NCBI GenBank assembly: GCA_024280015.1
Contig: JAJRQY010000064.1
Coordinates: forward strand, 29,254-93,253
Direction of reading: 5' to 3'
DNA length: 64,000 nt
From: Actinomycetes bacterium
GTDB taxonomy: Bacteria; Actinomycetota; Acidimicrobiia; Acidimicrobiales; SZUA-35
Made by a program: the position numbers and the translations under genes
The notes under the pieces: model-generated
Database searches by the model: none
Seen by the model: only the letters and a program-made list of their open reading frames with translations
Told to the model about the DNA's origin: nothing
Part shown: one piece after another, positions 19,854 through 61,365 of the stretch
Position numbering within the stretch: position 1 is the first letter of the stretch
How the letters are laid out: each line of letters starts with the position of its first letter

Positions 19854-21121
19854 GCCCCCGTTTGTAAGGGTGAGGGCGGCTGTGAGGGCGGCTGTGAGGG
19901 AGACGGCGAGGGTGGAATCGGCTGAACCTGTGTCGATGCCCACGATGGAGCCGCAACTGGCTGTGATGGCTGTGCCGACTGTGCCTGTGGCACCTGTGCT
20001 GGCTGTGCTACCTGTGCTGGCTGTGCTGGCTGTGCTACCTGTGCTGGCTGTGCTACCTGAGCGTGGTTGCCGGCAGATACGTCATCAGAAGCATCAGTGG
20101 CGACCGGAGCAGGGACTTGCTGCAGGACTTCGGCAATCACCTGTTCTGGTTTCACTCCACGGACCCACTGGTCAGGCAAGAGGAGGATGCGATGGGCAAG
20201 GACGGGGATGGCTAAGGCCTTGACATCGTCTGGCAACACAAATGTCCGACCAGCCATCGCAGCCCTCGCTCGGGTGGCCTTCAGCAACCCGAGCGAGCCA
20301 CGGGGACTTGCTCCGGCAATCGTGCGAGTACTAGCACGAGTAGCTTCAACCAGCGCGACGATATAGCGGGCTACCGGCTCACTGACATGGACCATCTCCA
20401 CCAGCTTCTGGAGTTGAACAACCTGCTCAGAAGTGAGAACCTGATCCAGAGCTAAGCGCTCGGTTTGACGTTCTGCCCGCTTCAGGATCAGGAACACTTC
20501 ATCCTCGGTGGACGGATAGCCAATCCCGGTCCGAACCAGGAAACGATCCATCTGGGCTTCGGGCAACGGATAGGTGCCTTCAGATTCAATCGGGTTTTGG
20601 GTTCCAATTACCATGAACGGCTTCGGCAATGGGCGCGTCTCACCATCCACTGTGACCTGTCGTTCTTCCATGGCCTCTAACAGGGCCGACTGGGTCTTTG
20701 GTGGAGCCCGGTTGATCTCATCGCCAAGGACAAGGTTGGCGAAAATGGGGCCTGGCTTGAACTCGACCCCACCTTGGGTGTTGCCGCCGGTGAACACCGC
20801 AGCCCCGGTGATGTCGGCGGGAATCAGGTCAGGAGTGAACTGGATTCGAGAGAATCCCAAACCTGATGCTTCCGCCAAGGCCCGAGCCGTTGCCGTCTTG
20901 GCCACTCCAGGAACATCTTCCAAGAGCACGTGGCCGTCAGCCAGCAACGCAGTGACGATGAGTTCCATCGTCTGACGTTTGCCGACAATGGCCCGTTCCA
21001 TCTGGTTGACCAGGCGTTCGCTCGCAGTTTGAACATCAGCAATCGAAGGGGCGCTGGTCGCGGTACTGCTGGCAGCGGTACTGCTGACTGCTTGATTGCT
21101 CGTCGTGTCGTTGTCTATCAA
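19850..21121 (-). CDS. MoxR-family AAA+ ATPase with a repetitive Ala/Gln/Pro C-terminal tail
   Basis: AAA_3 core is VLLEDVPGVAKT...DEINRAPPKTQSALLEAMEERQVT. The tail is AQVAQPAQVAQPAQPAQVAQPAQVPQAQ... Confidence 0.9.
   Translation of the reverse strand: MIDNDTTSNQAVSSTAASSTATSAPSIADVQTASERLVNQMERAIVGKRQTMELIVTALLADGHVLLEDVPGVAKTATARALAEASGLGFSRIQFTPDLIPADITGAAVFTGGNTQGGVEFKPGPIFANLVLGDEINRAPPKTQSALLEAMEERQVTVDGETRPLPKPFMVIGTQNPIESEGTYPLPEAQMDRFLVRTGIGYPSTEDEVFLILKRAERQTERLALDQVLTSEQVVQLQKLVEMVHVSEPVARYIVALVEATRASTRTIAGASPRGSLGLLKATRARAAMAGRTFVLPDDVKALAIPVLAHRILLLPDQWVRGVKPEQVIAEVLQQVPAPVATDASDDVSAGNHAQVAQPAQVAQPAQPAQVAQPAQVPQAQSAQPSQPVAAPSWASTQVQPIPPSPSPSQPPSQPPSPLQTGA
19958..20058. repeat. 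9-bp-period tandem repeat inside the moxR 3' region
   Basis: Units CTGTGCTGG / CTGTGCTAC iterate about 11 times on the plus strand and encode (AQP/AQV)n on the minus strand. A second array of a 12-bp unit, about 2.6 copies, lies at 19870..19900 (PSQP repeats). Confidence 0.85.
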
Positions 21122-21182
21122 GGTGCGCCGTCCATCTTGTGATTGAGCTTTGCTAGTAAAGACCTGTGTGATCTATCGGAAA

Positions 21183-21536
21183 TTATTGGCCAACCGTGAG
21201 GGGCTCAAGTTCAAGCTTCCTCTCCAGACGCTCAACCAAGGCTTCGACCGCATGCTCTGATGTGCCCAAGGTCTGCGACGAATCAAGCCCGACCGAGTGG
21301 CAATAGCCCCGCACCATCATCAGCGTGTGGTCGGGGTTGCCCTTGAGGTTCGCGGCGATTGAGGTGACATCCCACGCTTGTGACTTCAGGCCATGAACAT
21401 CCTGAACAATGGCAACAATTGGCCCTGCTGATTGTGAACCCAGGGCCAGCTTGTTACGCGTGGCAAGCGCGTACACCAGCACCACGCTGACGGCGAGGAA
21501 GGCAAAGAGGGGAAAGAGTTCCGCGAGAGTGCTCAT
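21183..21536 (-). CDS. Hypothetical membrane-anchored protein
   Basis: 117-aa ORF with an N-terminal TM helix (LFPLFAFLAVSVVLVYALA). It lies between the DUF4129 and moxR genes on the same strand. Confidence 0.5.
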   Translation of the reverse strand: MSTLAELFPLFAFLAVSVVLVYALATRNKLALGSQSAGPIVAIVQDVHGLKSQAWDVTSIAANLKGNPDHTLMMVRGYCHSVGLDSSQTLGTSEHAVEALVERLERKLELEPLTVGQ

Positions 21537-21564
21537 GAGGACGGCCTACTCACTGGACGGTTGC

Positions 21565-22674
21565 TCACTGGAATGCCCGCTGAACCAGGTTGCGCAGTTC
21601 TGCTACCGCTTTATCCCGTTGCTCGCTGGTTGCAGCCCGGTCACCAAAGCGAATCGCGCTATAGCGATTGGTCAGAGTTCGCAAGATTGAGGCCAGCTCA
21701 GGCTCAGTCGCTGCGACTGCGTCACACCATTCGAACGGAGTCTGTTCTGAATGACGGGGAATCAGCTGACCCATACCTTGCTCGGCATAGGCATAGACCT
21801 GTCGGATGGCCTGGGTCGGATCAGGGTTGGCAAGCAGCTCAGCTAGATACGCCTCAAACGCTTCCCACGTTGTTGCCGGTCGATGACCGGCAACTTCGAC
21901 AGGGGCCAGAACCGGCCCTTCACGGAGCTGGAACTTTGGCTTCATGGCGACGAACCACCAAACGGTTCCCGCTATTGCCAGCAAGGCAATCAGGATGATG
22001 ATCAGATTACGACCACTCGGGATCCAGCCGGACCCGTTCGAACCTCGATCGGAGTCCTCGGGAAGTGCCTGTTGGTCGCCACCCTGATCTCCCTCGACGA
22101 ATTCGATATCGGTGTCTCGGGCGCTCAGCCCATCACCAAGATCAATTCGACCATCAGAATCCCGGTCGAGGTCCAAATCATTGCCGTTTCGGTCAACAGC
22201 TTGGATGCCATTCTCGCCAACCTGAATCTGTGTGACCGACCCGTCAGGCTGAATCAAGGAGAATCCCCCATCAGCTGTTGGGACAAGAATAGTTTCGCCG
22301 GAGACATCATCCCCGGGGGCGAATGGGGTGAAGGTTCCATCGTCATTGACCACCATGCCAGCGACGTTCCCGTCCGGGTCCGGCTCAAACACAAGGGTCT
22401 TGATGTCACCATCAGAACCCCGACCAAGAACTTCTCCATCGTTCAGACTGAATTCAACAACATCACCCTCAGCAGTCTCAAAGAAAAGTCGGGTGGCGTC
22501 CTGGTCCTCAAATCGTTCTTGCTGGGCCTGTTCAATCTTGACGCGATCAATGAACCCTTGTCTTGATTCTGTGTCGATGGCTAGGGATGCCAGAACAAGG
22601 ACCAATATGGCCGCCGGAATCGCTAACCATCGCATCCACGGAGGGGGCCCCTCATTGACTACGACTGGTTGCAC
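21565..22674 (-). CDS. DUF4129 domain-containing membrane protein
   Basis: It has an N-terminal TM helix, an acidic Asp/Gly-rich middle and a second TM helix. The C-terminal region (TWEAFEAYLAELL...YAYAEQGMG...EQTPFEW...LTNRYSAIRFG) is typical of DUF4129. Confidence 0.7.
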   Translation of the reverse strand: MQPVVVNEGPPPWMRWLAIPAAILVLVLASLAIDTESRQGFIDRVKIEQAQQERFEDQDATRLFFETAEGDVVEFSLNDGEVLGRGSDGDIKTLVFEPDPDGNVAGMVVNDDGTFTPFAPGDDVSGETILVPTADGGFSLIQPDGSVTQIQVGENGIQAVDRNGNDLDLDRDSDGRIDLGDGLSARDTDIEFVEGDQGGDQQALPEDSDRGSNGSGWIPSGRNLIIILIALLAIAGTVWWFVAMKPKFQLREGPVLAPVEVAGHRPATTWEAFEAYLAELLANPDPTQAIRQVYAYAEQGMGQLIPRHSEQTPFEWCDAVAATEPELASILRTLTNRYSAIRFGDRAATSEQRDKAVAELRNLVQRAFQ

Positions 22675-25068: not shown

Positions 25069-25089
25069 GCGAATGATTCTCCTCGGTTC

Positions 25090-25153
25090 GTGCTTGGTCT
25101 GTGCTTGATTTGTGCTTGGTCCTGCTGCTCGATCTTGCTGCTTGATCTTGCTG
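25090..25153. repeat. Compound short tandem repeats filling the spacer between the monooxygenase/OYE gene and the ACAD gene
   Basis: GTGCTTGRTYY (11 bp) occurs 3 times at 25090..25122. TGCTGCTYGATCT (13 bp) then occurs 2.4 times at 25123..25153. Confidence 0.85.
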
Positions 25154-27535
25154 TTAATGCAAGTCAGACTTGGTAAAGGTCGGCTCTTGCTCACGACGCC
25201 GAGCACTCTTCCCCGTCAGGTATTGACGCGGCCACTCAAGACCTTCATAGCCTTGGTCCAACGCCGCGTTCATCGTCCAATAGGGGTCGATGAGGTGGGG
25301 GCGGGCCAAGGCGCAGAGGTCGGCTCGACCGGCAACCAGGATGGTGTTCACGTCATCAACACTGGCGACACCACCAACGGTCATGGTCGGGATCCCAGCT
25401 TCCAAACGGATACGTTCGGCGAACGGAACTTGATAGAGGCGGCCGTACTCGGGATCGCTGGCTGGATCGGTCTGACCAGTGGAAACGTCGATCAGGTCGG
25501 CTCCAGCCTTGTGCAAGCCACGGGCGATTTCTAGTGCATCCTTCTCATCGTTTCCACCTTCGATCCAGTCAGAGGCCGAGATGCGCACAAACACCGGACG
25601 ATTCGACGGCCAGGCCTTGCGAACGGCCTCAATGACCCGAATGGGGAACCGGAGTCGGTTCTCCATTGAGCCTCCAAAATCATCAGTTCGTTTATTTGTT
25701 ATCGGGCTTAAGAAGCAAGCAAGTAAGTAGCCATGGGCGGCATGGACTTCGACCAGGTCAAAGCCAGCAACGACGGCTCGTTCGGTGGCGGCCACATAGT
25801 CGCCAACAACCTGATCCATCTGTTCCACCGTCATCTCTTGTGGAGTCTGACTTCCCTCGGCATAGGGAATGGGGGAAGCTGAGATCAAGGGCCAATTCTT
25901 GGTAGCTCCATCGCTGCCCGGCCCATCGCTGCCTGGTCCATCGCTGCCTGGTCCATCAACAAGTGGTTCGTCATCAAGCGGTTCGTCCATGCCTTCCCAA
26001 GCAACCTTGGTTGAACCTTTCCGGCCAGCATGGCCAAGCTGGAGCCCAATCTTGGACTGGGTCTCACCATGAACAAAATCGACGATGCCCTTCCAGGCGG
26101 CGGCCTGCTCGTCATTCCAAATTCCCGCACAACCCGGCGTGATTCGAGCATCTCGACTGATGGCCGCCATTTCCGTCATGACCAGTCCGGCTCCACCAAC
26201 CGCCCTACTTCCAAGATGGACTTCGTGCCAACGATCGGGCATGCCTTCGGTGGCGCAGTATTGCGACATGGCGGAGACGACCACTCGATTGGGTAGCCGG
26301 AGGCCACCAATTTCATAGGGGTGGAACATGGGCGGAGTCTTCGCATCAGCGGGACGAGTTGACTCGGGCTGGTGCTCCCACCAATCAGCAAGAACCGCGT
26401 CAATGAAGCCTTGATCGCGCATTGCCAGGTTGTCATAGGTGACTCGTAGCGAGCGAGTCATCATGGAGAAGTTGAACTGGTGTGCGGATAGGCCCCAACG
26501 CAAACCAACATCCTCGAACCATCGCTGACTGGTTACAGCCGAACGCTGCAATGAGTCGGCTCCCGGACGCCGCTCCGCCTCATAGCGAGCCAACGCCGAG
26601 GCAATATCATCTTCATGCTCAACCGCACTGGCCAGAGCAACCGCATCCTCCAAGGCAAGTTTGGTTCCCGAACCAATGGAGTAGTGGGCGGTGTGGACAG
26701 CGTCACCGATAAGGACCACATTGTCGAAAGACCAATTCTTGTTGCTGACGCCGGGAAACGCCCGCCAAACCGAACCGTTTGGAATCAAGGGATAGCCATC
26801 AAGATGGTCGGCGAAAAGAGCTTCACAAGTGCTGACGGCAAGATCATCGGTCTCACCCGGGGCGAACTTCTGGTCGGCGGTGGCATCAAGACCAAGGCCG
26901 CGCCAGGTATCGCCATCCATCTCGACAATAAAGGTGCAGAGCTCATCGTCGTATGGATAGACGTGGGCTTGCACAATTCCGTGCGGTGTCTCCTCGAAGA
27001 GGAAGGTAAAGCGGTCGAACTTCTGCTTGGTTCCGAGCCAGACAAAGCGCGTATCTGATACCGGCATAGTCAGTTGGAATTCATCAGCCCACGTATCCCG
27101 GACCAAGCTGCTGAGTCCGTCGCAACCAATGACGAGGTCGGCATCACGGTACGCATTGGGATCACCGATCTCGGTGAGGTAGCGAATCTCTACTCCAAGC
27201 TCAAGGGCTCGCTTACCCAAAATCTGGAGCAGGCGAAGACGAGACAAGGCGGCAAATCCATGACCGTCGCTGGTGATGGTTTGGCCCTTGGCCACGGTGT
27301 CCATCTGGGTCCAGTAGCGCATCTCGGCTTCAATGGCGGCGATCGAGACTGGATCGCCGTCGGCGAAGTTAGCCAGCGTCTCATCGGAGAAGACCACGCC
27401 GAAACCCCAGGTGAAGTCGGGTCCGCTTCGCTCAGTAACCCGAACCTGGCACGTTGGATCAGCCAGCTTTAGCAAGATGGCGGTGAACAACCCTCCGGGC
27501 CCACCACCCAAACACTCAACACGCATCCCCTTCAT
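25154..27535 (-). CDS. Bifunctional FAD-monooxygenase / Old-Yellow-Enzyme reductase (salicylyl-CoA 5-hydroxylase or 2-aminobenzoyl-CoA monooxygenase/reductase type)
   Basis: The N-terminal half is a FAD monooxygenase (CLGGGPGGLF..., GDAVHTAHYSIGSGTKLA). The C-terminal half is an OYE/NADH:flavin oxidoreductase (LPNRVVVSAMSQY..., VEVHAAHGYLL). The start is uncertain (ATG 27535 or 27526). Confidence 0.85.
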   Translation of the reverse strand: MKGMRVECLGGGPGGLFTAILLKLADPTCQVRVTERSGPDFTWGFGVVFSDETLANFADGDPVSIAAIEAEMRYWTQMDTVAKGQTITSDGHGFAALSRLRLLQILGKRALELGVEIRYLTEIGDPNAYRDADLVIGCDGLSSLVRDTWADEFQLTMPVSDTRFVWLGTKQKFDRFTFLFEETPHGIVQAHVYPYDDELCTFIVEMDGDTWRGLGLDATADQKFAPGETDDLAVSTCEALFADHLDGYPLIPNGSVWRAFPGVSNKNWSFDNVVLIGDAVHTAHYSIGSGTKLALEDAVALASAVEHEDDIASALARYEAERRPGADSLQRSAVTSQRWFEDVGLRWGLSAHQFNFSMMTRSLRVTYDNLAMRDQGFIDAVLADWWEHQPESTRPADAKTPPMFHPYEIGGLRLPNRVVVSAMSQYCATEGMPDRWHEVHLGSRAVGGAGLVMTEMAAISRDARITPGCAGIWNDEQAAAWKGIVDFVHGETQSKIGLQLGHAGRKGSTKVAWEGMDEPLDDEPLVDGPGSDGPGSDGPGSDGATKNWPLISASPIPYAEGSQTPQEMTVEQMDQVVGDYVAATERAVVAGFDLVEVHAAHGYLLACFLSPITNKRTDDFGGSMENRLRFPIRVIEAVRKAWPSNRPVFVRISASDWIEGGNDEKDALEIARGLHKAGADLIDVSTGQTDPASDPEYGRLYQVPFAERIRLEAGIPTMTVGGVASVDDVNTILVAGRADLCALARPHLIDPYWTMNAALDQGYEGLEWPRQYLTGKSARRREQEPTFTKSDLH
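25907..25957. repeat. 15-bp tandem repeat x3.4 inside the OYE half (encodes GPGSD x3)
   Basis: TCCATCGCTGCCYGG units. An adjacent imperfect 15-bp pair lies at 25961..25990 (DEPL repeats). Confidence 0.9.
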
Positions 27536-28586: not shown

Positions 28587-28667
28587 CCAGCTGAACGATT
28601 GCCAGCTGAACGATTGCCAGCTGAACGATTGCCAGCTGGACGATTGCCAGCTGGACGATTGCCAGCG
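28587..28667. repeat. 15-bp tandem repeat x5.4 in the paaX-hpaB-like spacer
   Basis: CCAGCTGAACGATTG occurs 3 times, then CCAGCTGGACGATTG 2 times, then a partial unit. The array starts 13 nt after the paaX stop and ends 32 nt before the ATG at 28699. Confidence 0.95.
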
Positions 28668-30222: not shown

Positions 30223-30223
30223 A

Positions 30224-30271
30224 GCTCAAATCTCGACAGGCTCAAATCTCGACAGGCTCAAATCTCGACAG
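30224..30271. repeat. 16-bp perfect tandem repeat x3 at the convergent hpaB-like/phzF junction
   Basis: GCTCAAATCTCGACAG occurs 3 times. The third copy encodes the last four codons and the stop of the minus-strand phzF-like gene. Confidence 0.95.
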
Positions 30272-31238
30272 TGCCAGTGACGGAAGCAACGGCAACCCCG
30301 CCAACCCAGATGACGCCTTCGGGATCTTGCTCGATGTAGACCCGACCACGGCGACCCATGGCCGTGCCCTGACTAGCCACGTAGCTGGTTGGCAACGACG
30401 AAACCGGTGAGTTCTCCCCCAGCAGCCACTGGGCCACCGAAGCGTTGAGGCTTCCGGTAACTGGATCCTCAAAGATGCCTCCGGTGCCATCGGCGAAAAA
30501 GGCTCGGATCTCCATGGCACACGAATCAGTGTTGTCACCCGAGTCATTCTCATCACCCGAGCCAGTGTCGTCACCTGAGTTTCGGTACAACCCAACCACA
30601 CCAAGATCCAGTTCCGTTCGAGGTCCACTCGGCGCATCCAATGCCAGCACCGCCTCGGCATCGGCCAGCATCAAGATCACCCAGCCTGGACCATTGTCAC
30701 CCCATTGGGCGTCAACAACCTCACCCCGCTCAACACCGAGCACCTCCGCCATCTCCTCAATGAATGACTCTTCGACCTCACCAGATCGAATCAACGCAGG
30801 TGCCGCGAAGGAAATCTGATCGCCATTCTCGCCACCGGCAGCACCAGCAACACCACCAGCAGCACCGTCACCGCCGTTTGGACCTGCGTCCGCGCCTGCG
30901 GTCAACTTCAATTCGATCAGTCCGGCACCGCACTCTTGCACTACCCGACCAGGAGTCTTGGGTTGCCCGCCAGCATCTAGCCAAGCCTGACAAGAACCAA
31001 TGGTTGGATGCCCGGCGAAGGGCAGCTCCCGAGGGATGGTGAAAATCCGAACCCGGTAGTCGGCCTCGGGCACCGTTGGCTTCAGGAGGAACGATGACTC
31101 CGACAAATTGGCCCACTTGGTGAATCGGTGCATTTCCTCCGTTGTCAGCCCATCAGCATCTATGACGCAAGCCAGCGGGTTTCCCGAGAAGGGGATCGAG
31201 GCAAATACATCAAGTTGTGAGAATCGTCGCTTACTCAT
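30258..31238 (-). CDS. PhzF family isomerase with low-complexity insertions
   Basis: The N-terminus FSQLDVFASIPFSGNPLACVIDADGLTTEEM is typical of PhzF. Gly/Ala/Asp-rich inserts are GADAGPNGGDGAAGGVAGAAGGENGD and SGDDTGSGDENDSGDNTDS. Confidence 0.85.
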   Translation of the reverse strand: MSKRRFSQLDVFASIPFSGNPLACVIDADGLTTEEMHRFTKWANLSESSFLLKPTVPEADYRVRIFTIPRELPFAGHPTIGSCQAWLDAGGQPKTPGRVVQECGAGLIELKLTAGADAGPNGGDGAAGGVAGAAGGENGDQISFAAPALIRSGEVEESFIEEMAEVLGVERGEVVDAQWGDNGPGWVILMLADAEAVLALDAPSGPRTELDLGVVGLYRNSGDDTGSGDENDSGDNTDSCAMEIRAFFADGTGGIFEDPVTGSLNASVAQWLLGENSPVSSLPTSYVASQGTAMGRRGRVYIEQDPEGVIWVGGVAVASVTGTVEI

Positions 31239-31252
31239 TACCTAACTCTACG

Positions 31253-31282
31253 GGACCTGACTCTGCAGGACCTGACTCTGTG
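31253..31282. repeat. 15-bp tandem duplication in the divergent phzF/AKR promoter spacer
   Basis: GGACCTGACTCTG-CA followed by GGACCTGACTCTG-TG. Confidence 0.8.
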
Positions 31283-33042: not shown

Positions 33043-34185
33043 CTACAAGCCGGGCGCATCATAGTAAGCGGCGCCGCCACCCTGATCCATCAGGTCATCA
33101 AACCAGTTTCCGTCATAGACATCGTTCGGACCCTGCAACAAGTCTGGGGCCTCTCCCGGTGTGGAGGTGGCAAACGTCCAAGCTTGACGCTTGTAGGTCC
33201 AATTCTCTGGATGCAGGTGGTGGGCCTCTTGCCACCATCTCACCGCTGCGGCCACGGCTTGGTTGTCATCACTCTTGAGTGAAGCACCTTTGAGTGAAGC
33301 ACCTTTGGCTACACCCTCAGAAGCGGCCCGAGTCCAATGCCATTGGCCGAGCTCGAAACAGGCCGTCGCTCGGGCATGGTCCATGGGCAGTGGTCGTGAC
33401 CTCGCAACAACCTCGTCTGCCGATAGGCAGAACTCGCTCTCACTCCCCTTGTCAACCCAGTCATGAATAGCGGCCAGGTAGCCCTCGGGGTTGCCCTGGA
33501 ACTTGCCAATCTCGGTGAAGACCTCCTTGATCCGGTCGGGAAGATCATCCGGAAGTGACCCACCTTTTGGCCGGGGTTCGATCGAAGCCAGCTCAGCAGG
33601 GCGAACCAGCTGGCCTTCCTCGTCAATCCAGACTGCCATTGGCACATTGGTGAAACCAAAGAGCTCATCACTGATATGGCGAGTGTCAATCAGAGACGGA
33701 TGCGTGGGCTCAGCTAGCTCAATCCAAGGCATGGCGTCATCCCGCTCAACATCAAGAGCAACCGTCACCACAGTCAGCCCCTTGGACTCAAGCTCGGTGT
33801 GTAGTGCTTGCCACACGGGCAAGCTGTTGCGACAACCTCACCAGCTGGCCCAAGCCACAAGCAAGACCTTGCGGCCATGCAGACTGGACAGCTTGAACAG
33901 GTTGCCGTCGGCATCTTCAAGCTCAAGTTCGGCCGCGGTGGCCGAAGCCAATGCTCGGCCGCCGCTGCTTGGCCCAAGGGCCCAGATCGAGGCGTCCTCG
34001 TCGCGGATCAGTGGCATTTGCAACCGTTCGGCCACCACAGCCAGATCGAGGTCACCGGCCGCGGTGCTGGCCCCATCAGGCAAGGGCACACACTGATCGG
34101 CTCGACACATACCTTCAGGTTTGATCTCCCACCCCGTGCGGGCAGCGAAAGAGAGTGGGTCGATAGTTAAGGATTCAACAATCAC
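33043..34185 (-). CDS. ResA/TlpA-like thioredoxin-fold protein with an in-frame TGA at the redox-Cys position (candidate selenoprotein, alternatively a pseudogene)
   Basis: ORFs 33838..34185 and 33043..33822 share one frame and are separated only by TGA 33838..33840. Read-through gives GRKVLLVAWASW-U-GCRNSLPVWQALHTELESKGLTVVTVALD, which matches the FWASWCxPC(R/K)xE(L/M)P block of TlpA/ResA. A hairpin lies at 33806..33824, downstream on the mRNA. Confidence 0.55.
33275..33304. repeat. 15-bp perfect tandem duplication inside the thioredoxin-fold gene (GASLK x2)
   Basis: TTGAGTGAAGCACCT occurs 2 times. Confidence 0.9.
33806..33824 (-). promoter_or_regulatory. bSECIS-like stem-loop downstream of the in-frame UGA
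   Basis: The RNA reads 5'-GCUUGCC-CGUGU-GGCAAGC-3', a 7-bp perfect stem with a 5-nt loop. The stem starts 13 nt after the UGA. The loop starts 20 nt after it and has G at loop position 2. Confidence 0.45.
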
Positions 34186-34265: not shown

Positions 34266-35771
34266 GTGCTGCCGATGCTGTACCCAATGGACATATCGCC
34301 TTGGTTCCTGGTTGCCAGCCTGAGTGGTCTGGCTTGCGCGTCACTTTCTCTAGCAGTAATCGTCGCAGGGTGGGTGCGTCGCGTCGCCGAAGTCGCCATT
34401 CTTGGCAGTGGATTGTTCTCCCTTTCCATCTTTGCTGCCGCGTTTGGGCTCAGCGTCACTGATCTTGGCGGTGGCTCACCGGCTAGCCCAATGCTGGCGT
34501 ACTTGGCCTTACCATCGGCGGTTTTCACCGCCTTTCCTCTCCTTTCACCAACGACAGTCACCGCACGTTTCATCGGTCAGCACTGGCGATCCTGGGTTGC
34601 GTTTTGCGCTGCTACCAATATCGCCGGAGTCGTCCTACTCATTGGGAATACCGCCCCAGTCGGAATAGTGACCAAGACGGTGCTCCTGACCATTGGCATC
34701 CTCGGCAGTTTGAAGCTGGCCAACCGCCAGGTTTACCTCTACAGAATCAGTGGTCGTACAACAGCCCTAGCCACTGCCGCGGCCGTTGCGTCGCTCACCC
34801 TCTCCACCTCGATGGGGCCAGCGGTTCAGCCTGGCAGTGTCTGGTCCTGGATAGTCCTGGCCGCCGAAAACGCCGCCGTCCTCTCAGCCGGAGGGGCCAT
34901 CATCTATGGCTACCGTACCGGGCAGAGTGTTGCTGACATTCTCGGACCAATGCTGTCCAACGAACCGCTTGCGGCCCTGGAACTTGGCCTAAGCCCAGAG
35001 GTCCACAGCTTTGTCGCTGCGCTGGAACAGAAGGACCAGGTCACTCGAGATCATGTTGTTCGGACATCGGCGCTAGCTATGCGGGTCGCCATCCGAGCCG
35101 AATTGAAACCAACCGAGGTACGCGAGATTGCCCTCGGGGCTTTGCTACACGACATTGGCAAGCTCATCGTTCCCAGCAGCATCATCAACAAGCCTGACCG
35201 CTTGACCGATGAGGAGTTCGCCACCATCCAAACCCACCCCGAACAAGGTGAGCGGTTACTCGAGGGATCGGTGGTACTCGCCCCCGCCGCTCGCTTCGTA
35301 CGAGGCCACCACGAACGGGTCGATGGCAAGGGCTATCCCGATGGCTTGAAGGGGGATGAGCTTTCATTGGAAGTGGCCATCGTCAGTGTTTGCGATGCCT
35401 GGGATGCCATGACCCACACCCGCCAGTACCGCCAAGGTATGGGAAGCGAGCGAGCGACGGAGATTCTCCAAAGGGGCGCAGGCAGCCAGTGGCGGGCAGA
35501 TGCCGTACTACTTGTTCTCGCCGAGATATCGAGCAATGGTCAGTCCGATCTGGAAGCAGCTGGTCCAATTGGCCGCCACAATCTGGTCGACATGCAATGC
35601 CAGCTAACGGAACAAACCCTGGCCAACCAAACGCTGGCTGAGCAAACACTGGCAGAGGAAGCGCTGAGTTGCTGTGTTCCGGAGATCGCTTCTCAGGAAA
35701 CAGCCCGCACTAAGTCAATGGCCCGGCCAAGTGTGTCCAATCGATCAGACAAGGTGTCCCCGGCCGGATAG
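34266..35771 (+). CDS. Membrane-bound HD-GYP domain phosphodiesterase
   Basis: About 7 N-terminal TM helices precede HDIGKLIVPSSIINKPDRLTDEEF...HPEQG...GHHERVDGKGYPDGL (HD and GYP motifs). The start is uncertain (GTG 34266, ATG 34275 or ATG 34287). Confidence 0.8.
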   Translation: MLPMLYPMDISPWFLVASLSGLACASLSLAVIVAGWVRRVAEVAILGSGLFSLSIFAAAFGLSVTDLGGGSPASPMLAYLALPSAVFTAFPLLSPTTVTARFIGQHWRSWVAFCAATNIAGVVLLIGNTAPVGIVTKTVLLTIGILGSLKLANRQVYLYRISGRTTALATAAAVASLTLSTSMGPAVQPGSVWSWIVLAAENAAVLSAGGAIIYGYRTGQSVADILGPMLSNEPLAALELGLSPEVHSFVAALEQKDQVTRDHVVRTSALAMRVAIRAELKPTEVREIALGALLHDIGKLIVPSSIINKPDRLTDEEFATIQTHPEQGERLLEGSVVLAPAARFVRGHHERVDGKGYPDGLKGDELSLEVAIVSVCDAWDAMTHTRQYRQGMGSERATEILQRGAGSQWRADAVLLVLAEISSNGQSDLEAAGPIGRHNLVDMQCQLTEQTLANQTLAEQTLAEEALSCCVPEIASQETARTKSMARPSVSNRSDKVSPAG

Positions 35772-40051: not shown

Positions 40052-40161
40052 CCGACTGGCTACTGGCTGTCATTTGACTGGCAATTGACTAGCTGTTGAC
40101 TGGCAATTGACTAGCTGTTGACTGGCAATTGACTAGCTGTTGACTGGGGAGCGACTGGGCG
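40052..40161. promoter_or_regulatory. Array of 11-bp-phased TTGACT boxes (22-bp unit x3 plus degenerate flanks) in the divergent promoter spacer
   Basis: Exact TTGACT occurs at 40074, 40085, 40096, 40107, 40118, 40129 and 40140. Degenerate boxes are CCGACT at 40052 and GCGACT at 40151. The unit is TTGACTGGCAATTGACTAGCTG. Confidence 0.6.
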
Positions 40162-45733: not shown

Positions 45734-46770
45734 TGGACACTCAGATAGCCAGTCAGTTAACAGCTGACCCACCGGCAGTCGCGCCACAGACAGTCGCGCC
45801 ACCGAGAACCCAGCCACAAGCAGGTGGACCTCAGGCGACACTCATCGCTGACGGAAGTCGTCTACACCTCAACCATGGCCCCATCGATCTGATCATCTCG
45901 GCTGATGGCTCACCCGCAGCCCGGAGGCGGGCATTCGATGCTGCCGCCAGCCGGTTTGATGGCCTATTGGAGGAGCTGGTACACGAGCTCGACGTTCTTC
46001 GCACTCCGGCCCAATCCCAGCCAACGTCACAATCACAGTCACATCCTCAGACACCGGCAGCCGGCGGTGCCGTAGCCCAACGCATGCTGGCCGCGGTCTG
46101 GCCATACCGGGACCGGGAACGGATTACCCCGATGGCTGCGGTAGCTGGGGCGGTGGCCGATGAGATTGGGGCGGCCATCACCAACTCAGATCCAGCGGGT
46201 GACCTCACCCGTTGGATGGTCAACAATGGTGGCGACATAGCGATATGGCTGGCGGCCGGACAGGCCTATCGCGTCGGGGTCGTCATGGGCCACCCATCTC
46301 TGCTGGCGCCGCTGGAGCCTCTTGTTGCGTGTTCTACCGGTGCCGGGACGGATCGAATCGACACTCACGCAGGAGCGCTAGCAATCACAAGCGAGATGCG
46401 CATTGGCGGGATCGCCACTAGCGGTCAGCCAGGCCGAAGTTTCTCCCTTGGTATTGCGGACTCCGTCACCGTCTTGGCCAATAATGCTGCAGCTGCTGAT
46501 GCGGCGGCCACCCTTATTGCCAATCGGGTCGATCTTCCTGACCACCCTGGTATCAGGCGAACTCCGGCCTGTGAACTGGATCCGGACAATGATCTTGGCC
46601 AGATCCCCATCACCGTCGACGTACCTTCGCTAGAAGAAGCCGAGGCCGCAACGGCTCTGGGCGCCGGGCTCAGCTTTGCCAATGAACTGGTGTCTGACAA
46701 GCTCATTGTTGCTGCCATCCTTCACCTCTGCGGACTCACTGTCTCAACTTCACGACAGAGCAGCCAGTGA
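45733..46770 (+). CDS. UPF0280 (ApbE-like) family protein
   Basis: The block SRLHLNHGPIDLIISADG resembles the UPF0280 signature as I recall it. ATG 45733 overlaps the upstream stop (TGATG). The tracked TTG at 45712 is an alternative start. Confidence 0.55.
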   Translation: MDTQIASQLTADPPAVAPQTVAPPRTQPQAGGPQATLIADGSRLHLNHGPIDLIISADGSPAARRRAFDAAASRFDGLLEELVHELDVLRTPAQSQPTSQSQSHPQTPAAGGAVAQRMLAAVWPYRDRERITPMAAVAGAVADEIGAAITNSDPAGDLTRWMVNNGGDIAIWLAAGQAYRVGVVMGHPSLLAPLEPLVACSTGAGTDRIDTHAGALAITSEMRIGGIATSGQPGRSFSLGIADSVTVLANNAAAADAAATLIANRVDLPDHPGIRRTPACELDPDNDLGQIPITVDVPSLEEAEAATALGAGLSFANELVSDKLIVAAILHLCGLTVSTSRQSSQ

Positions 46771-46805
46771 CGACAGAGCAGCCAGTTACGACAGAGCAAC
46801 CAGAG
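46752..46805. repeat. 18-bp tandem repeat x3 spanning the UPF0280 stop and the marR start
   Basis: ACGACAGAGCARCCAGWK units. Unit 1 carries both TGA 46768..46770 and GTG 46767..46769. Confidence 0.9.
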
Positions 46806-47309
46806 CAACCAGGCCAGCCAGGCAAGCGGCCTGCCAAGCGGCCGGCCAAAAAGCGTCAGCAAGCTGGCACCAAGGCGACCGTCAAGGATGGCTATGTCCT
46901 GGAGGACCAGATTGGATTCTTGCTGCGGAAAGCGAACCAACGCCATCGTTCCATTTTCGGCAACCAGGTCAAGAACAACATTGCTCCCGCTCAGTTCTCC
47001 GCTCTGGCCAAACTTCACCAGCTGGGGCCCCTGTCTCAGAATCACCTTGGGCGCCTCATCGCCCTGGATTCCGCCACCATCAAGGGTGTGGTGAACCGCC
47101 TAGTCCAGGCTGACTATGTGACCAGCGAACGGTCCGAGGACGACGCCAGATTGCGAATCATTGACCTCACCACCCATGGTCGAATCCGTATCAAGGGTCT
47201 GCTTCCCTTGGCTGAAGAGATTACTCAGCTCACGCTTGCCCCTCTCAACGATCAAGAAGCGAAGACGCTCCATCGACTCCTGAGCAAGATTGCCGGATCA
47301 CTGGACTAG
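46767..47309 (+). CDS. MarR family transcriptional regulator with a repetitive/basic N-terminal extension
   Basis: The wHTH region is FSALAKLHQLGPLSQNHLGRLIALDSATIKGVVNRLVQADYV. The N-terminus is TTEQPVTTEQPEQPGQPGKRPAKRPAKK. There is a GTGA overlap with the upstream stop. Confidence 0.85.
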   Translation: MTTEQPVTTEQPEQPGQPGKRPAKRPAKKRQQAGTKATVKDGYVLEDQIGFLLRKANQRHRSIFGNQVKNNIAPAQFSALAKLHQLGPLSQNHLGRLIALDSATIKGVVNRLVQADYVTSERSEDDARLRIIDLTTHGRIRIKGLLPLAEEITQLTLAPLNDQEAKTLHRLLSKIAGSLD

Positions 47310-47315
47310 CGAAAT

Positions 47316-47393
47316 CGTGCTACCTCAAACCGTGCTACCTCAAACCGTGCTACCTCAAACCGTACTATCTCAAACCGTGCTACCTCAAACCGT
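47316..47393. repeat. 15-bp tandem repeat x5.2 at the convergent marR / AA_synth junction
   Basis: CGTGCTACCTCAAAC units (the 4th copy is CGTACTATCTCAAAC). The 5th copy contains the stop and the last three codons of the minus-strand gene. Confidence 0.95.
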
Positions 47394-48059: not shown

Positions 48060-48119
48060 GCAAGGTCGACTGGTGCAAGGTCGACTGGTGCAAGGTCGAC
48101 TGGTGCGAGGTTGACTATG
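48060..48119. repeat. 15-bp tandem repeat x4 in the divergent AA_synth / pncA promoter spacer
   Basis: GCAAGGTCGACTGGT occurs 3 times, followed by the degenerate copy GCGAGGTTGACTATG. Confidence 0.95.
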
Positions 48120-48806: not shown

Positions 48807-50489
48807 TCATGGGGCACCGGGATTCTCGGGTTCGCATTGGATCGATGCTTGCGTCTCGCACTGTTCTCCTTGGCCACGGATCCCGCGACCACCTGAATTC
48901 ACATTGACTGGGGGTGGGTCATCTGTTGCCTCGTCTTCTGGAGAACCCTGGTTGGGCTGTTGACGATCAGGATGGGCCTCATTGCGAGTGAAATGAACCG
49001 ACCAGGGATCGTACGATTCACCCAGTGGGTGGGTGTAGGTCCCTTCGGGTGGAGCATCAGGAACGGGATGTGCCCTCTGGATATCGCGGCCACCCTTGGC
49101 AATGAAACGCAGACCATCGCCACTGGAAGTCTGTAGCCCGAACGGTGTCTCCGGATTGCCCACAATGGAAAAAGCGTGGCGGTGATGCTCACGATGATGC
49201 CGGCGACACAAGGTCACCAGATTGTCGGTGTCGGTGAGGCCGCCCTTGACCCAATGCTTCATGTGATGAACGTCCAGCCAGCGCTGGGCTGCGCATCCGG
49301 GAAAGCGACAGCCATTGTCTCGGTTGAGGATGATCTCCCTCAGCCACGAAGGCACTGCCGCTTGTGTCAAACCTAAGGACACAGGCTTGCCAAACTTCGT
49401 CAACAGCAGCTGGACTGAACTCTCACACGACAGCAGGTCCATAACGTCGGTGGTGAGCACTGGGCCGAGATGCAAGTTGGGGCGCAAGCCCTGAGCCCAT
49501 GACGAAAGTTCGCTGGCCTCCAAATGGATGAGCACTCGGTTGTCGGCGCCACGAGAACCAGATGGGTCGGCCTCGACTCCGGCGCGAATCATGGTGAGGA
49601 ACGAGTCAAACCCGCTGACGTCAGTTTCACCGGTGTCGGCCTTCAATCGAGCACGCGCCTGATCGAGTGCAGCGACAATCTCGGCTCCGTCATCGGCACC
49701 ACAACGCATCCACATCCGGAAGTTCCCATCATCATCAAAGCCGTAGCCAAACCCGCGGTAGGGCTTGTCCAACTCTTCTTGGACGAAACCATCAGGCATG
49801 TCTGAGGGGCAGCAGTTGTCAGGAAGCGAGTCGGGAAGGGACAAGCCATCGGATCCATCTGCGTGGTCAGGATTGTTGGAGGAATCCGAAGAGGGCTCAG
49901 CACCGGGATCGCTAGTCGAATCGTCATCGGAGTTGTCCGAAGGATCGGGATCGGGATCGGGATCGGGATCGGGATCAAGGAAGCAATAGTCACGCATGAT
50001 GCGGCGAAGTTGCGGGATCGTGGCATGGACGGCGAGGGCGGAAACCGTCTGGTCATAGTCGACCGGACAGTGGCGGGCGATAAGAGTCATTTGGTCGATA
50101 CTGAGCTGACCGTCGGAGAATCGGTCAAAGGCAAAGGGCAACTCGCAACGACGCTCGGCGATGCGAACCAGGCGACCAGAATGCTGCCGGGTAAGCCCAA
50201 GTTGCCATTCGACCCAGTGGAAAATGGAGTTGATCCCCGAGACACACCACTCGCCCGAGCCAATGACATCGGCGATCATGTTGACAACAGCGTGATCGGC
50301 CAAGTTGCGTGAGCCGGCCAAGGATGCGACCAGGTGTTCCGGAGCAACAAGCTCGTCTTCGGTGCGGCAACGCTCCCCTGGCACCTCCGAGACAGTCCGG
50401 ACATCAGCGGTCGAAGAGCTGGCCACCGTGGAGGCCGAATCAGGTGAGGACTGCTGCCCTTCCATCAGTGTATCGAACATATGTACCAT
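48807..50489 (-). CDS. DUF222 + HNH endonuclease domain protein (actinobacterial 13E12-repeat type)
   Basis: The C-terminal HNH motif is CRFPGCAAQRWLDVHHMKHWVKGGLTDTDNLVTLCRRHHREHH. The N-terminal part is DUF222-like, with a central DPDPDPDPDP low-complexity stretch. Confidence 0.85.
   Translation of the reverse strand: MVHMFDTLMEGQQSSPDSASTVASSSTADVRTVSEVPGERCRTEDELVAPEHLVASLAGSRNLADHAVVNMIADVIGSGEWCVSGINSIFHWVEWQLGLTRQHSGRLVRIAERRCELPFAFDRFSDGQLSIDQMTLIARHCPVDYDQTVSALAVHATIPQLRRIMRDYCFLDPDPDPDPDPDPSDNSDDDSTSDPGAEPSSDSSNNPDHADGSDGLSLPDSLPDNCCPSDMPDGFVQEELDKPYRGFGYGFDDDGNFRMWMRCGADDGAEIVAALDQARARLKADTGETDVSGFDSFLTMIRAGVEADPSGSRGADNRVLIHLEASELSSWAQGLRPNLHLGPVLTTDVMDLLSCESSVQLLLTKFGKPVSLGLTQAAVPSWLREIILNRDNGCRFPGCAAQRWLDVHHMKHWVKGGLTDTDNLVTLCRRHHREHHRHAFSIVGNPETPFGLQTSSGDGLRFIAKGGRDIQRAHPVPDAPPEGTYTHPLGESYDPWSVHFTRNEAHPDRQQPNQGSPEDEATDDPPPVNVNSGGRGIRGQGEQCETQASIQCEPENPGAP
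49942..49976. repeat. 6-bp microsatellite (GGATCG)x5.8 inside the HNH gene
   Basis: It encodes (DP)n on the minus strand. Confidence 0.95.
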
Positions 50490-51873: not shown

Positions 51874-53163
51874 ATGGCGGGACCTCGTATGCTCCAGCGA
51901 GTGCCAACAACCACTCCTGCTCGGGAGAAAACTCCAAGCTCCCCCAAAGCTGATCGTCACTCCTGGATTGTGCTGGCGCTAGCTACCACCACGGCCGCAC
52001 TGACTGGGCCCGGTCAAACCATCGGCGTTTCCGTCTTCATCGACCACTTCGTCAGCGACCTGAATCTAACCCGATCCCAGGTGGCTGGCGCCTACCTTGT
52101 CGGCACCTTGACGGGAGCCACTCTTCTGCCATCTGTTGGTCGCTTTATCGATCGCCGCGGTGTCCGACGATCACAGATCATTGTTGGCCTCTTGTTTGGA
52201 CTGGCGTTGGCCAACATGTCCCAAGTGAACGGCTTGGTCTGGCTGGCCTTCGGCTTTACCGGCATCCGACTCCTTGGACAAGGGTCGCTCTCACTGATCG
52301 CCACCGTCACGGTCTCTCTCCAGTTCGTTCGCAACCGAGGGACCGCTCTCGGCATCTTTTCTACCGTTGCTGGTGCACTGATGGCCATTGTTCCTGTAGC
52401 CATGTCCTTTGCCATCAGTCAATGGGGTTGGCGAGTCGCGTGGATGGTTTCCGCCGGCGTTGTACCAGCCACCGTCGTTGCCTTTGCCGCATTCGGCCTG
52501 CGAGACCTTCCCCCTGGCTCAGCCTCTTCCACGGCGAAAACCCATCTCGACAGTGATTCGACTGACCGGGCTGACGCCCTCCGCTCTCGCGGTTTCTGGG
52601 TCTTGGCTGCGGTAAGCGGCTCGTCCGGCATGCTGGGAACGGCGTTGAATTTCCACCAGATCGACCTGCTCGGAGATGCCGGACTCACTAGCACGGCGGC
52701 TGCCATCATGTTCCTCCCCCAAGTTCTCGGTTCGTCGATCGCTGGATTGAGTGTCGGCTTGATCAGTGACCGCGTCGGCACACGGTTCTTGCCTGCGGCC
52801 GGAATGGCACTACTTGTCGCCGCTCACTGGATGGCCGCAATTGTCTCACCGGGCATTGTTGTTGTCCTCTATGCCATCGTGCTCGGCGCCATGGCTGGGG
52901 CTGTCCGCACCACGGCCTCGACCCTGCTACCCCAATGGTTCGGCACCGGCCACCTCGGGTCGATCCAGGGGTCGCTGACCTTCTTCACCGTCGGCGCATC
53001 AGCCATTGGGCCCGTCGCCCTGGCACAGCTGGAACAGGGCTTTGGCTCCTATCGACCAGCCGTTCTGCTCCTGAGCATCATTCCCGCCATCGCCTTGGTC
53101 TTCTCACTGGCTGACCCAAAGCAGACTGCACACCCAAGACAGACTGCACACCCAAGATCGTGA
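51874..53163 (+). CDS. MFS transporter
   Basis: About 12 TM helices and a GRFIDRRGVRR loop motif. The start is uncertain (ATG 51874, or 51745 which overlaps the PPOX gene less plausibly). The C-terminus carries QTAHPR x2 from an 18-bp duplication at 53122..53157. Confidence 0.8.
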   Translation: MAGPRMLQRVPTTTPAREKTPSSPKADRHSWIVLALATTTAALTGPGQTIGVSVFIDHFVSDLNLTRSQVAGAYLVGTLTGATLLPSVGRFIDRRGVRRSQIIVGLLFGLALANMSQVNGLVWLAFGFTGIRLLGQGSLSLIATVTVSLQFVRNRGTALGIFSTVAGALMAIVPVAMSFAISQWGWRVAWMVSAGVVPATVVAFAAFGLRDLPPGSASSTAKTHLDSDSTDRADALRSRGFWVLAAVSGSSGMLGTALNFHQIDLLGDAGLTSTAAAIMFLPQVLGSSIAGLSVGLISDRVGTRFLPAAGMALLVAAHWMAAIVSPGIVVVLYAIVLGAMAGAVRTTASTLLPQWFGTGHLGSIQGSLTFFTVGASAIGPVALAQLEQGFGSYRPAVLLLSIIPAIALVFSLADPKQTAHPRQTAHPRS

Positions 53164-59342: not shown

Positions 59343-59484
59343 CCTATTGCCTTACGCACTCAAGCTGTCAACCCAAGTCCAGCTAGCGCTGACGAAACCA
59401 CTTAGCTGAGGCGTTTCGCTAATCCGTCCTGCCAGCAACCCGAGGCTGATCACTGACGATTAACCAACAACCTGGAGACCTCGC

Positions 59485-61287
59485 ATGGCGGTATCTGAAA
59501 GCAAGCGGCCACATCTGAAGAAGCAACTAGTGCTCCTGCTGCTACTTCCCATGCTTGGGTTGGCTTGGGCCAATGGGTCAACGGCCTTCCGTCGAAGCGG
59601 CGACATCGGCGAGTCACGCACCGTCAATCGATTGGTCATCCTCGCCATCGACTCTGGCCAACTGCTCCACGAGAATCAGAAAGAGCGAGGCCTCACTGCT
59701 CTCTTCCTCAGCGCTGGACCAGGCGCCGACCCAAGCGCATTGAATACCCAACGACTGGCAACAGACCAGGCGTGGGAGGAAATCGAGGGCTTCTTACACG
59801 ATGAGCAAGACTCACTTCCAGCTGATGCCAGAGCCACAACCTTGGAAATGGAATCAGGCGTGGGCGGCCTCGCAAGCCTGCGAGCCGAGGTTGACTCACA
59901 TTCAGTCGATCTATCAACGGCGATCGCCCACTACACCGAAACGAACCGGCTGTTGCTTGACCTGATCGCCAACAGTTCAGCCCACAGTACCGACGCCAGC
60001 ATTACACGATCAACCACTTCATTCTTCGCCCTTCTGGATGGCAAGGAACGCGCCGGACTGATACGGGCTCAGCTGGCCAACGTCTTCACCACCGACACCT
60101 TTTCCCCCGGCCAGCGAAGGGTCGTCTCAGACCTGATCACCGAGCAAGAGACCTACTTTGATGTATTCCAACATATGACTTCTCAAGCCCTCCTGACCGA
60201 GTTCGACGCCTTCACCGAGGCACCGGCGACCCAGGCCGTTGACGCCTTCCAGGAGCGAGCCCTGTCCGAAGAAGGTGCTCCGTTTGGCATTGTTCCAAAC
60301 GAATGGTTCTCCACCATGACTGAGCGAATCGACATCCTCAAGGAGCTGGAAGACTCACAAGCAAACGAGATCGAGCTGATCGCAAAAGAGATTTCCTCCG
60401 ATGCCTCGGCTGGCTTTCGCAATTCCCTCATCTTCTTCTTTGGTTTCAGCCTGGCGACGACACTGCTGGCGTACTTCAATATTCGCTCCATCACCGGAAC
60501 TCTGAGCGACCACGCCCATAATCTCACCACGACCTCCGTCGAACTTGGCGGAAGTGCCGACAAAATCTCTGATGTTGTAAGTGCCGCGGCCGAAACTGCT
60601 GGCTTCGCCTCAGGCGCTGCTGATGAGGTGTCAGACAGTGTCGGACGAGTAGCCGCTGCCGTTGACGAGCTAGCTCAGGCAGTTACGGAGATCTCGGTCA
60701 ATACCAGCCGAGCCAGCCAGGTCGCAGGACAGGCCGTCCAGCAGGCAGCAGCAACCAATGAGGCAGTCAGCCAGCTTGGTAACTCCTCCGAGCAAATTGG
60801 TGCGGTGGTGGAAGTCATTTCTGGTATTGCCGAGCAGACCAACCTTCTGGCCCTCAATGCCACCATCGAAGCAGCTCGGGCCGGTGAGTCAGGCAAGGGC
60901 TTCGCTGTTGTGGCCAATGAGGTGAAGGAACTGGCTCAGCAAACCAATGCATCAACCGAGCAGATCGCCATCCTGGTGTCAGCCATTCAGGCTGACTCGG
61001 ACAAGTCCGCCCACGCAATCCAAGAGATTGGCGACATCATCCAGGAAATAGCGGAGATCCAGACCAGCATCGCGGCTGCAGTCGAAGAGCAGTCAGCAAC
61101 GACCGGTGAGATCTCTCGCAACATCGCCCAAGCGGCCGACGGTTCAAACGAGATCGCCTTGTCCATTCGGGCAGTTGCCGAACAGACGACCGACGCTCAA
61201 AGTGATATCGCGGTGACCGTTCAATCGGCCAGAACCCTGGACGCGGTTGCCGAGTCCATCCAGGAGATGGTTGGTGCCCACTCCTAG
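59485..61287 (+). CDS. Methyl-accepting chemotaxis protein with periplasmic NIT (nitrate/nitrite-sensing) domain
   Basis: It has an N-terminal TM helix, a NIT-like block ([17 protein letters not shown]), a second TM helix and a conserved MCP hairpin tip ([35 protein letters not shown]). Confidence 0.85.
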
Positions 61288-61327
61288 CCCCCGGGCAAGT
61301 TGGCCACGAGTCTCACGCTGCAACCCA

Positions 61328-61365
61328 GACGAACCGGACGAACCCGACGAACCGGACGAACCGGA
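61328..61365. repeat. 9-bp tandem repeat x4.2 downstream of the MCP gene
   Basis: GACGAACCS units. Confidence 0.9.

Follow-up and report, generated by a model that had tools for sequence, protein, structure and literature searches.

Why does a 64-kb stretch of DNA from an Acidimicrobiales bacterium carry so many short tandem duplications, and what process put them there? The stretch (hereafter the window, the whole 64,000 nucleotides that were analysed) is C94:29254-93253 of the host genome G000, a 4.80 Mb metagenome-assembled genome (MAG) of 175 contigs with 58.2% G+C. An original prediction, made from the letters of the window, had listed 20 arrays with unrelated units, concentrated at gene ends and spacers, and had proposed either a lineage prone to local duplication by slippage or replication restart or selection for contingency-like variability. 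We consider it likely that the arrays are scars of one genome- and genus-wide process, microhomology-mediated tandem duplication (MTD), sieved by purifying selection. In this genus the duplicated units show a mode at 15 nucleotides (nt).

Tandem duplications are abundant across the genome and peak at 15 nt

Arrays in the window were identified with Tandem Repeats Finder (TRF), followed by a direct count of matches at lag p on all 20 sites listed earlier. TRF recovered nearly all of them where they had been placed, and by the direct count all 20 exist, the weak ones being 25961-25990, 44105-44134 and 25090-25153. Across the host genome, TRF arrays with a score of at least 50 were collected and overlapping rows merged, resulting in 593 arrays (123/Mb), 74% of them with units that are multiples of 3. 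This density is ~2.7-fold over that in a reference set of 1.62 Mb of unrelated bacterial loci. Shuffled controls were close to empty, with 21 TRF rows in a triplet-shuffled genome as compared to 728 in the real genome and zero exact tandem duplications with a unit of at least 12 bp in a block-shuffled genome, and chance was therefore excluded as the source of the arrays.

The TRF score cut-off favours 15-bp units in any DNA, and unrelated bacterial DNA likewise peaks at 15 in TRF output at a score of at least 50. For this reason unit lengths were measured with an exact scan, which is threshold-free and records, for each period, every exact run that cannot be extended further and spans two full copies or more. 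The host genome contained 235 exact tandem duplications with units of at least 10 bp. By unit length there were 95 duplications at 9 nt, 19 at 12 nt, 5 at 13 nt, 14 at 14 nt, 94 at 15 nt, 10 at 16 nt, 9 at 17 nt, 21 at 18 nt and 10 at 21 nt. Duplications with units of at least 10 nt reached 48.9/Mb as compared to 7.4/Mb in the unrelated loci (~7-fold), and those of exactly 15 nt reached 19.6/Mb as compared to 1.2/Mb (~16-fold). Units of 9 nt (19.8/Mb in the host and 27.7/Mb in the unrelated loci) and 12 nt (4.0/Mb and 3.1/Mb) were not enriched. As the spike persists in a threshold-free scan, we take it to be real. Genome-wide over-representation of 15-bp units, raised in the original prediction, was borne out by the 94 exact cases, the excess in TRF output being partly a score-threshold effect.

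The window lies on the densest contig of the genome. C94 (114.6 kb) carries 34 arrays as compared to 13.7 expected (2.5-fold, P=2.6e-6), and of 59 64-kb windows the seven with the most arrays all come from it. In G001, a sister species of the same genus, the syntenic 100 kb is at or below the mean density of that genome. A purely local phenomenon was rejected, as the signature is genome-wide and genus-wide, with C94 still a hotspot. The array-rich part of C94 coincides with faster-diverging catabolic genes (72-77% identity to G001 as compared to 78-83%).

Arrays keep the reading frame within genes and accumulate where constraint is weak

The position of each array was assessed against a home-made, rough gene map, on which the split between in-gene and intergenic arrays rests. 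Between 36 and 40% of the arrays in the genome were intergenic as compared to 9.5% expected, a 4-fold enrichment, and 60-64% were in genes as compared to 90.5% expected. Within genes the positions were U-shaped, with 174 arrays no more than 50 bp from a stop (52 expected) and 118 no more than 50 bp from a start (55 expected). The concentration at gene ends and spacers first seen in the window therefore holds genome-wide. The same is true of the claim that in-gene arrays are in frame; in the window every in-gene unit is a multiple of 3 on this rough map, the 11-, 13-, 16- and 22-bp units lying in spacers or overlapping just the last few codons of a gene, and genome-wide the proportion is 92-93% in genes as compared to 38-41% between genes. 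Spacers differed by the orientation of the flanking genes, with 0.87 arrays/kb in convergent, 0.48 in co-directional (tandem) and 0.33 in divergent spacers (P=1e-5). The least constrained DNA retains the most arrays.

Selection for contingency loci, in which copy number acts as a selected switch of gene expression, would explain why dense, near-perfect repeats lie near gene starts and in spacers. It would not explain why 92-93% of in-gene arrays are multiples of 3 and so cannot toggle the frame, why the units are unrelated, why the genes are ordinary metabolic enzymes or why the promoter-bearing divergent spacers are the poorest class. We consider this part of the original prediction to be highly improbable.

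The unit-length spectrum was also examined where the reading frame is irrelevant. Intergenic exact duplications numbered 5 at 12 nt, 4 at 13 nt, 13 at 14 nt, 22 at 15 nt, 9 at 16 nt, 8 at 17 nt and 5 at 18 nt. The presence of the 15-nt peak in this DNA argues that it comes from the mutation process and not from selection at the protein level. The ratio of in-gene to intergenic events was alike at 12, 15 and 18 nt (14:5, 72:22 and 16:5), which fits one mutational spectrum filtered equally at these three lengths.

Units are unrelated, flanked by microhomology and often missing from a sister species

The units of 180 15-bp arrays were compared with each other and with the genome. Their best pairwise identities were distributed like those of random genomic 15-mers and 175 of the 180 were unique in the genome, as the original prediction had supposed from the window. 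A dispersed repeat family of the mycobacterial interspersed repetitive unit (MIRU) type was rejected on these identities. A CRISPR array was rejected as the copies are contiguous and without spacers. Palindromes were not enriched, the 15-bp units having fewer than random 15-mers.

Junctions were evaluated in two-copy arrays. These showed a mean of 5.7 extra in-register bases as compared to 0.8 expected for a random doubled segment, a mean that is inflated by run-on into older degenerate copies (see below). In cleanly flanked arrays with 15-nt units the mean microhomology was 4.2 nt, with at least 3 nt in 41% as compared to ~8% expected. Cleanly flanked arrays with other units had means of 3.3 nt at 13-17 nt and 6.6 nt at 18-30 nt. 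At 10-12 nt the mean was 1.0 nt, near chance, and this class and the class of at least 13 nt may arise by different routes. The genome held no surplus of short direct repeats at 15-nt spacing beyond the arrays themselves, and an intrinsic 15-nt periodicity of microhomologies was rejected as the origin of the preferred length. Blunt fill-in of a staggered cut was rejected for the 15-nt events on account of the junction microhomology.

The window was then compared with G001, with which it is collinear at 73-83% nucleotide identity. About 17 of 22 window arrays correspond to a clean gap or a single unit in G001. At about five sites (21539, 28587, 30224, 19994 and 38648) both species have arrays and the copy numbers differ. 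That most arrays are gaps or single units in the sister species indicates that they are real insertions with a turnover faster than species divergence, in agreement with the recent origin that near-identical copies had suggested. Collinearity is broken at 57950-62560, where 58339-59388 maps ~12 kb further on in G001 and 59405-61291 and 61461-62559 are in swapped order; the alignment indicates a probable insertion in G001 with local rearrangement.

These comparisons bear on two further sources, an assembly or sequencing artefact and target-site duplications left by mobile elements. The host genome is a MAG of 175 contigs, as an artefact might have it, and a fixed length of 15 nt resembles a target-site duplication. 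However, an artefact cannot yield a frame bias of 93% in genes as compared to ~40% outside, and the independent two-contig assembly of the sister species has the same load and spectrum. A mobile-element footprint is contradicted by units that share no sequence and are found nowhere else in the genome, and both the microhomology arms and arrays of 3-6 copies misfit plain cut-and-fill. We attach next to no credence to either source. A transposon footprint was also rejected in its own right, no shared flank or unit sequence having been found, with no search made for an element with 15-bp target-site duplications.

The 15-nt mode is found in one genus

Exact duplications with units of at least 10 nt were counted in eleven relatives, several of them sampled by 60-270 kb only, and in 400 kb of the Rhodococcus jostii replicon pRHL1 as an outgroup. 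The two relatives of the same genus as the host, G001 (an assembly of two contigs, nearly closed) and G002, had 58/Mb and 57/Mb, each with a 15-nt mode. In the same family the load was 30/Mb in G010, 35/Mb in G006, 25/Mb in G011 and 5/Mb in G008, which has a 1.8 Mb genome. Elsewhere in the order it was 68/Mb in G016, 90/Mb in G020, 117/Mb in G015 (only 60 kb sampled), 110/Mb in G019 (only 82 kb sampled) and 12.5/Mb in G018, which has a 2.0 Mb genome. When the relatives outside the genus were pooled, their peak fell at 12 nt, with 20 events as compared to 11 at 15 nt, and the ratio of 15-nt to 12-nt events was 107:24 in the genus as compared to 13:27 elsewhere (P=1.2e-8). The Rhodococcus replicon had 20/Mb exact duplications, none of them 15 nt, and 108 TRF arrays/Mb.

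Several other Acidimicrobiales reach similar raw TRF densities, and by this measure the genus is not exceptional among Actinobacteria. What sets it apart is how many young exact duplications it has, together with a 15-nt mode that is seen in this genus only. The original prediction that such a density is atypical for a bacterial chromosome thus stood against unrelated loci (2.7-fold by TRF, 7-fold by exact duplications and 16-fold by 15-nt units) and fell against the raw TRF density of other Acidimicrobiales and the Rhodococcus replicon. A literature search on tandem duplications in Acidimicrobiia found no paper.

Microhomology-mediated tandem duplication as the probable source of the arrays

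MTD has been described across bacteria, where it is depleted from coding sequence and mostly neutral, and it is raised in yeast rad27 mutants (PMC13167724). In Schizosaccharomyces pombe a second report describes a peak at 150-nt spacing that is absent from E. coli (PMC8639346). The arrays of the host genome share the signature of such events, as they are head-to-tail duplications of segments that are otherwise single-copy and specific to their locus (the units are unrelated, and G001 has one unit or a gap), the junctions have microhomology beyond chance except in the 10-12-nt class, which is near chance, and the arrays are depleted from coding sequence and biased toward preserving the frame. 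In the proposed sequence of events a short, locally unique stretch bounded by direct repeats of a few bases would be copied once, head to tail. The copying would most likely occur when a strand slips or misaligns as DNA is replicated or a fork is restarted, and later slippage would expand or contract the array to 3-6 copies. Purifying selection would then act on the products, so that in genes almost only multiples of 3 persist, mainly at termini, linkers and loops, and between genes all lengths could persist, best in convergent spacers, which have no promoter. The preferred length in this genus would be 15 nt, with shoulders at 14-17 nt. From these patterns we infer an origin in replication slippage or Okazaki maturation.

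Several observations weigh against this account. De novo formation, copy-number polymorphism and the mutational length spectrum were all deduced from fixed events only, and under simple slippage the frequency should decay with distance, without a maximum at 15 nt. Some of the apparent microhomology stems from run-on into older degenerate copies, a further degenerate copy being present in 67 of 144 classifiable two-copy arrays (148 in total), and ~43% of the cleanly flanked two-copy arrays have no more than 2 nt of microhomology. The gene calls are crude, so that 15-nt arrays counted as intergenic may in some cases fall within the unannotated end of a gene. Lastly, no difference in gene content among the 21 genomes compared below accounts for either the load or the ruler.

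On balance we favour MTD. The earlier interpretation is partly supported, in that a heritable lineage propensity for local duplication by slippage or restart is supported by a signature that is genome-wide, shared by two sister species, recent and flanked by microhomology. The origin of tandem repeats is not yet settled, and the MTD model is only beginning to be applied more generally. A clade with young duplications at 7-16 times the level of typical loci is a natural data set of hundreds of independent events per genome, in which the frame-neutral intergenic events separate mutation from selection. In practice, gene prediction and alignment in this clade will have to cope with many 5-residue inserts that are specific to one lineage and lie in otherwise conserved enzymes, and the arrays could be used as strain markers.

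What sets the 15-nt length

The sharp preferred length points to a molecular ruler, and as the 15-nt preference is missing in sister clades, the question of what sets duplication length becomes testable. Gene presence and absence was assessed in 21 Acidimicrobiales genomes. The 5'-nuclease domain PF02739 was matched in 21 of 21 genomes, with at least two matches in 20, and the three genomes of the genus each have a Pol I-length gene and a FEN-like gene of ~295 amino acids. Loss of the flap nuclease, of the rad27 or polA 5'-exonuclease type, was ruled out by the presence of these genes, as read from sequence, in all 21 genomes. NucS was found in 18 of the 21, including all three of the genus, and ExoVII was present, so that loss of neither can be the cause. 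MutS and RecJ were absent from all 21 genomes, those with a low load included. As both genes are missing order-wide, their absence was rejected as the cause of differences between lineages. A ruler set by the transcription bubble or the promoter was rejected as well, divergent spacers being the poorest and convergent spacers the richest.

The stand-alone FEN-like 5'-nuclease gene of the host genome lies near a second LigD-type Prim-Pol gene (C128:45537-46025 and C128:48683-49420). The two are ~1-11 kb apart, mostly 3-6 kb, in 10 of 13 family genomes (G000, G001, G002, G004, G006-G009, G011 and G012). This conserved neighbourhood resembles the mycobacterial Prim-PolC/LigC repair module.

Ku and LigD are present in the host genome, as is NucS, and with the lack of MutS this is a combination in keeping with the Actinobacteriota. 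An alternative is a separate, size-gated process atop slippage, either end joining by Ku and the LigD Prim-Pol or the footprint of another protein. A break or stalled 3' end would be re-primed through microhomology, and a bound protein such as the Ku ring, or the ~15-bp footprint of a replisome or ligase, would fix the distance. Each event would insert ~15 nt. Such a process would suit a peak that is sharp and genus-specific with no enrichment at 9 and 12 nt over unrelated DNA, an intergenic spectrum that is low at 10-13 nt and rises to a hump at 14-17 nt, and the different microhomology of the 10-12-nt class and the class of at least 13 nt. The 150-nt peak of S. pombe shows that MTD can have a bound-protein ruler (PMC8639346). 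Among the 21 genomes, Ku and the LigD polymerase domain were co-absent only in G018 and G019, and Ku was truncated in G008. Duplications of 13-18 nt amounted to 2.3/Mb in these three genomes as compared to 21.8/Mb in six relatives that have Ku and do not belong to the genus (P=3.6e-5, uncorrected for phylogeny). However, this association ignores phylogeny and is confounded by size, as two of the three genomes without intact Ku are streamlined (1.8-2.0 Mb). G019 has no Ku and yet a high total load, the Ku-bearing Rhodococcus replicon has no 15-nt mode, and the modal length differs between the genus and its Ku-bearing relatives although their non-homologous end joining genes are the same, a difference that Ku cannot account for. 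Ku and LigD track the 13-18-nt class only loosely, and we regard a separate process of this kind as unlikely.

A ruler acting within MTD fares somewhat better and can be put forward tentatively. A heritable size-gated process might fix the distance between the slipped 3' end and the microhomology at 15 nt through a protein footprint, either of the replisome and Okazaki-maturation machinery or of Ku and LigD. If so, related lineages of Acidimicrobiia would be expected to have the same process with different quanta. Such genomes would then preserve a natural record of a molecular ruler at work when tandem repeats are born, with convergent spacers gaining nearly 1 array/kb.

Arrays in the window

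The arrays of the window are described in order of position, with match counts at the lag of the unit in brackets; those without a count were called by TRF together with the lag check, apart from three that were found by TRF and had been missed before. The C-terminal tail of a MoxR-like AAA gene on the minus strand has two in-frame arrays, an exact 12 bp x2.6 at 19870..19900 (19/19 at lag 12; also called by TRF) and a 9/27-bp array of ~11 copies at 19958..20058 (69/92), with a longer array of the same kind in G001. The first of the missed arrays, 15 bp x2.2 at 21539..21572, is at a gene junction and has at least 4 copies in G001, making it a shared site with a differing copy number. A weak composite of 11/13/22-bp units, not a multiple of 3, occupies the spacer between two minus-strand genes at 25082..25153. 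An Oxidored_FMN-type flavoprotein gene contains the in-frame array at 25907..25990, made up of 15 bp x3.4 and a degenerate 15 bp x2 (25961-25990, 11/15), of which 57 nt are missing in G001. At 28587..28667 an array of 15 bp x5.4 (64/66) lies between the upstream stop and the conserved ATG of an HpaB-like gene, where G001 has 2 degenerate copies.

The exact 16 bp x3 array at 30224..30271 (32/32) lies in a convergent spacer and overlaps the 3' end of a PhzF-like gene, the proximal copy encoding the C-terminus and stop of this gene. G001 has 2 copies there with an identical 16-bp unit, although the surrounding DNA is ~80% identical; either the duplication recurred at a single microhomology site or the copies evolved in concert. 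The PhzF-like gene also contains the second missed array, an in-frame 18 bp x2.6 at 30535..30580, with 30 nt missing in G001. A divergent spacer has 15 bp x2-2.7 at 31240..31282. In a minus-strand gene an exact in-frame 15 bp x2.2 is present at 33275..33307, with ~51 nt missing in G001. The third missed array is a degenerate 15 bp x2.7 at 35613..35653, near the 3' end of gene 34266-35771. Near the N-terminus of another minus-strand gene, 12 bp x2.8 lies in frame at 38648..38680; G001 has the same length with diverged copies, which indicates that this array is old.

The array at 40052..40161 consists of 11/22-bp repeats with three exact 22-bp units in the divergent spacer 39999-40259 and is not conserved in G001. 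Within it, at 40074-40147, the three exact units repeat TTGACT with an 11-bp phase in a divergent promoter region. The lack of conservation of the 40074-40147 array in G001 argues against an old regulatory role. On the plus strand, 15 bp x4.5 at 43034..43101 (51/52) encodes in-frame NTAQS repeats around the start of the second of two molybdenum cofactor-binding domains of a Mo-hydroxylase, with 42 nt missing in G001. Also on the plus strand are a weak, degenerate 15 bp x2 at 44105..44134 (12/15) at the N-terminus of a gene of 548 amino acids, and 27 bp x2 at 44222..44276 (26/27), in frame in an N-terminal extension with 48 nt missing in G001. At 46752..46827 (plus strand) 18 bp x3 with 9-bp sub-repeats covers the junction of gene 45733-46770 and a MarR gene. 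Two spacers follow, a convergent one with 15 bp x5.5 at 47312..47393 (59/63 over 47316-47393, x5.2; 44 nt missing in G001) and a divergent one with 15 bp x4 at 48060..48119, where G001 has exactly one unit. An exact 6 bp x5.8 is in frame in a minus-strand gene at 49942..49976, and an 18 bp x2.4 at 53114..53157 on the plus strand (18/18 over 53122-53157, x2) is in frame 6 nt before the stop of gene 51970-53163. The last array, 9/18 bp x4.2 at 61322..61365, is in the spacer after the stop at 61287.

Overall the inserts of the window lie in linkers and tails, and the host genes are ordinary metabolic enzymes. These positions could mean that some arrays are kept as useful, either as flexible or disordered protein segments, as proposed for Borgs, or as arrays that bind a regulator. 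The sites with arrays in both species at 21539, 28587 and 30224, the last with an identical unit, and the phased TTGACT motifs at 40074-40147 speak in the same direction. However, most arrays are species-specific gaps and the phased array is itself not conserved in G001, density is lowest in the promoter-bearing divergent spacers and highest in convergent ones, and the units are unrelated with the same length spectrum inside and outside genes. We consider usefulness an improbable reason for the persistence of the arrays.

As a separate feature of the window, 55023-55067 on the plus strand matches Ms_AS-5, a Mycobacterium sRNA in Rfam, with a score above the gathering cut-off (49.7 bits, E=4e-6). 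The match sits within the coding region of gene 53250-55262 and may reflect no more than an antisense relation to a conserved protein motif.

Comparison with known repeat systems

The arrays were compared with known systems that produce short repeats. The Borg elements of Methanoperedens are reportedly archaeal extrachromosomal elements with perfect tandem repeats, as described by Schoelmerich et al. The likeness lies in dense, near-perfect, locus-specific repeats that are in frame in genes, occur also in spacers and turn over quickly, and the difference in that Borgs are archaeal extrachromosomal elements, whereas here the arrays occupy a bacterial chromosome and a whole genus. Variable-number tandem repeats, MIRUs and phase-variable repeats are likewise short arrays, often at gene junctions, with copy numbers that vary between relatives. 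MIRUs differ in that they are dispersed and share a family consensus, which the unrelated units here lack, and phase-variable repeats shift the frame or the promoter spacing of particular genes, whereas the arrays here are in frame and in ordinary enzymes.

In E. coli, polA 5'-nuclease mutators produce duplications flanked by short direct repeats. The short duplications of the rad27/FEN1 and polA mutators resemble those of the genus in being flanked by microhomology (for rad27, PMC13167724). They differ in their genetic background, as all 21 genomes here have both the 5'-nuclease domain of Pol I and a separate FEN-like gene. The closest likeness is to MTD itself, where both reports describe locally unique segments that are duplicated between short direct repeats and then expand to tandem repeats, and propose a link to replication and Okazaki maturation (PMC8639346, PMC13167724). 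The parts of these reports that were consulted describe no bacterial lineage at such a load and no 15-nt mode, the sole ruler being that of ~150 nt in S. pombe, and the events there were seen in reads, whereas in the genus formation is deduced from fixed events. The kind of mutation is therefore already known, MTD having been published in 2021-2026, and what is distinctive is the high load of young events and the genus-specific 15-nt ruler.

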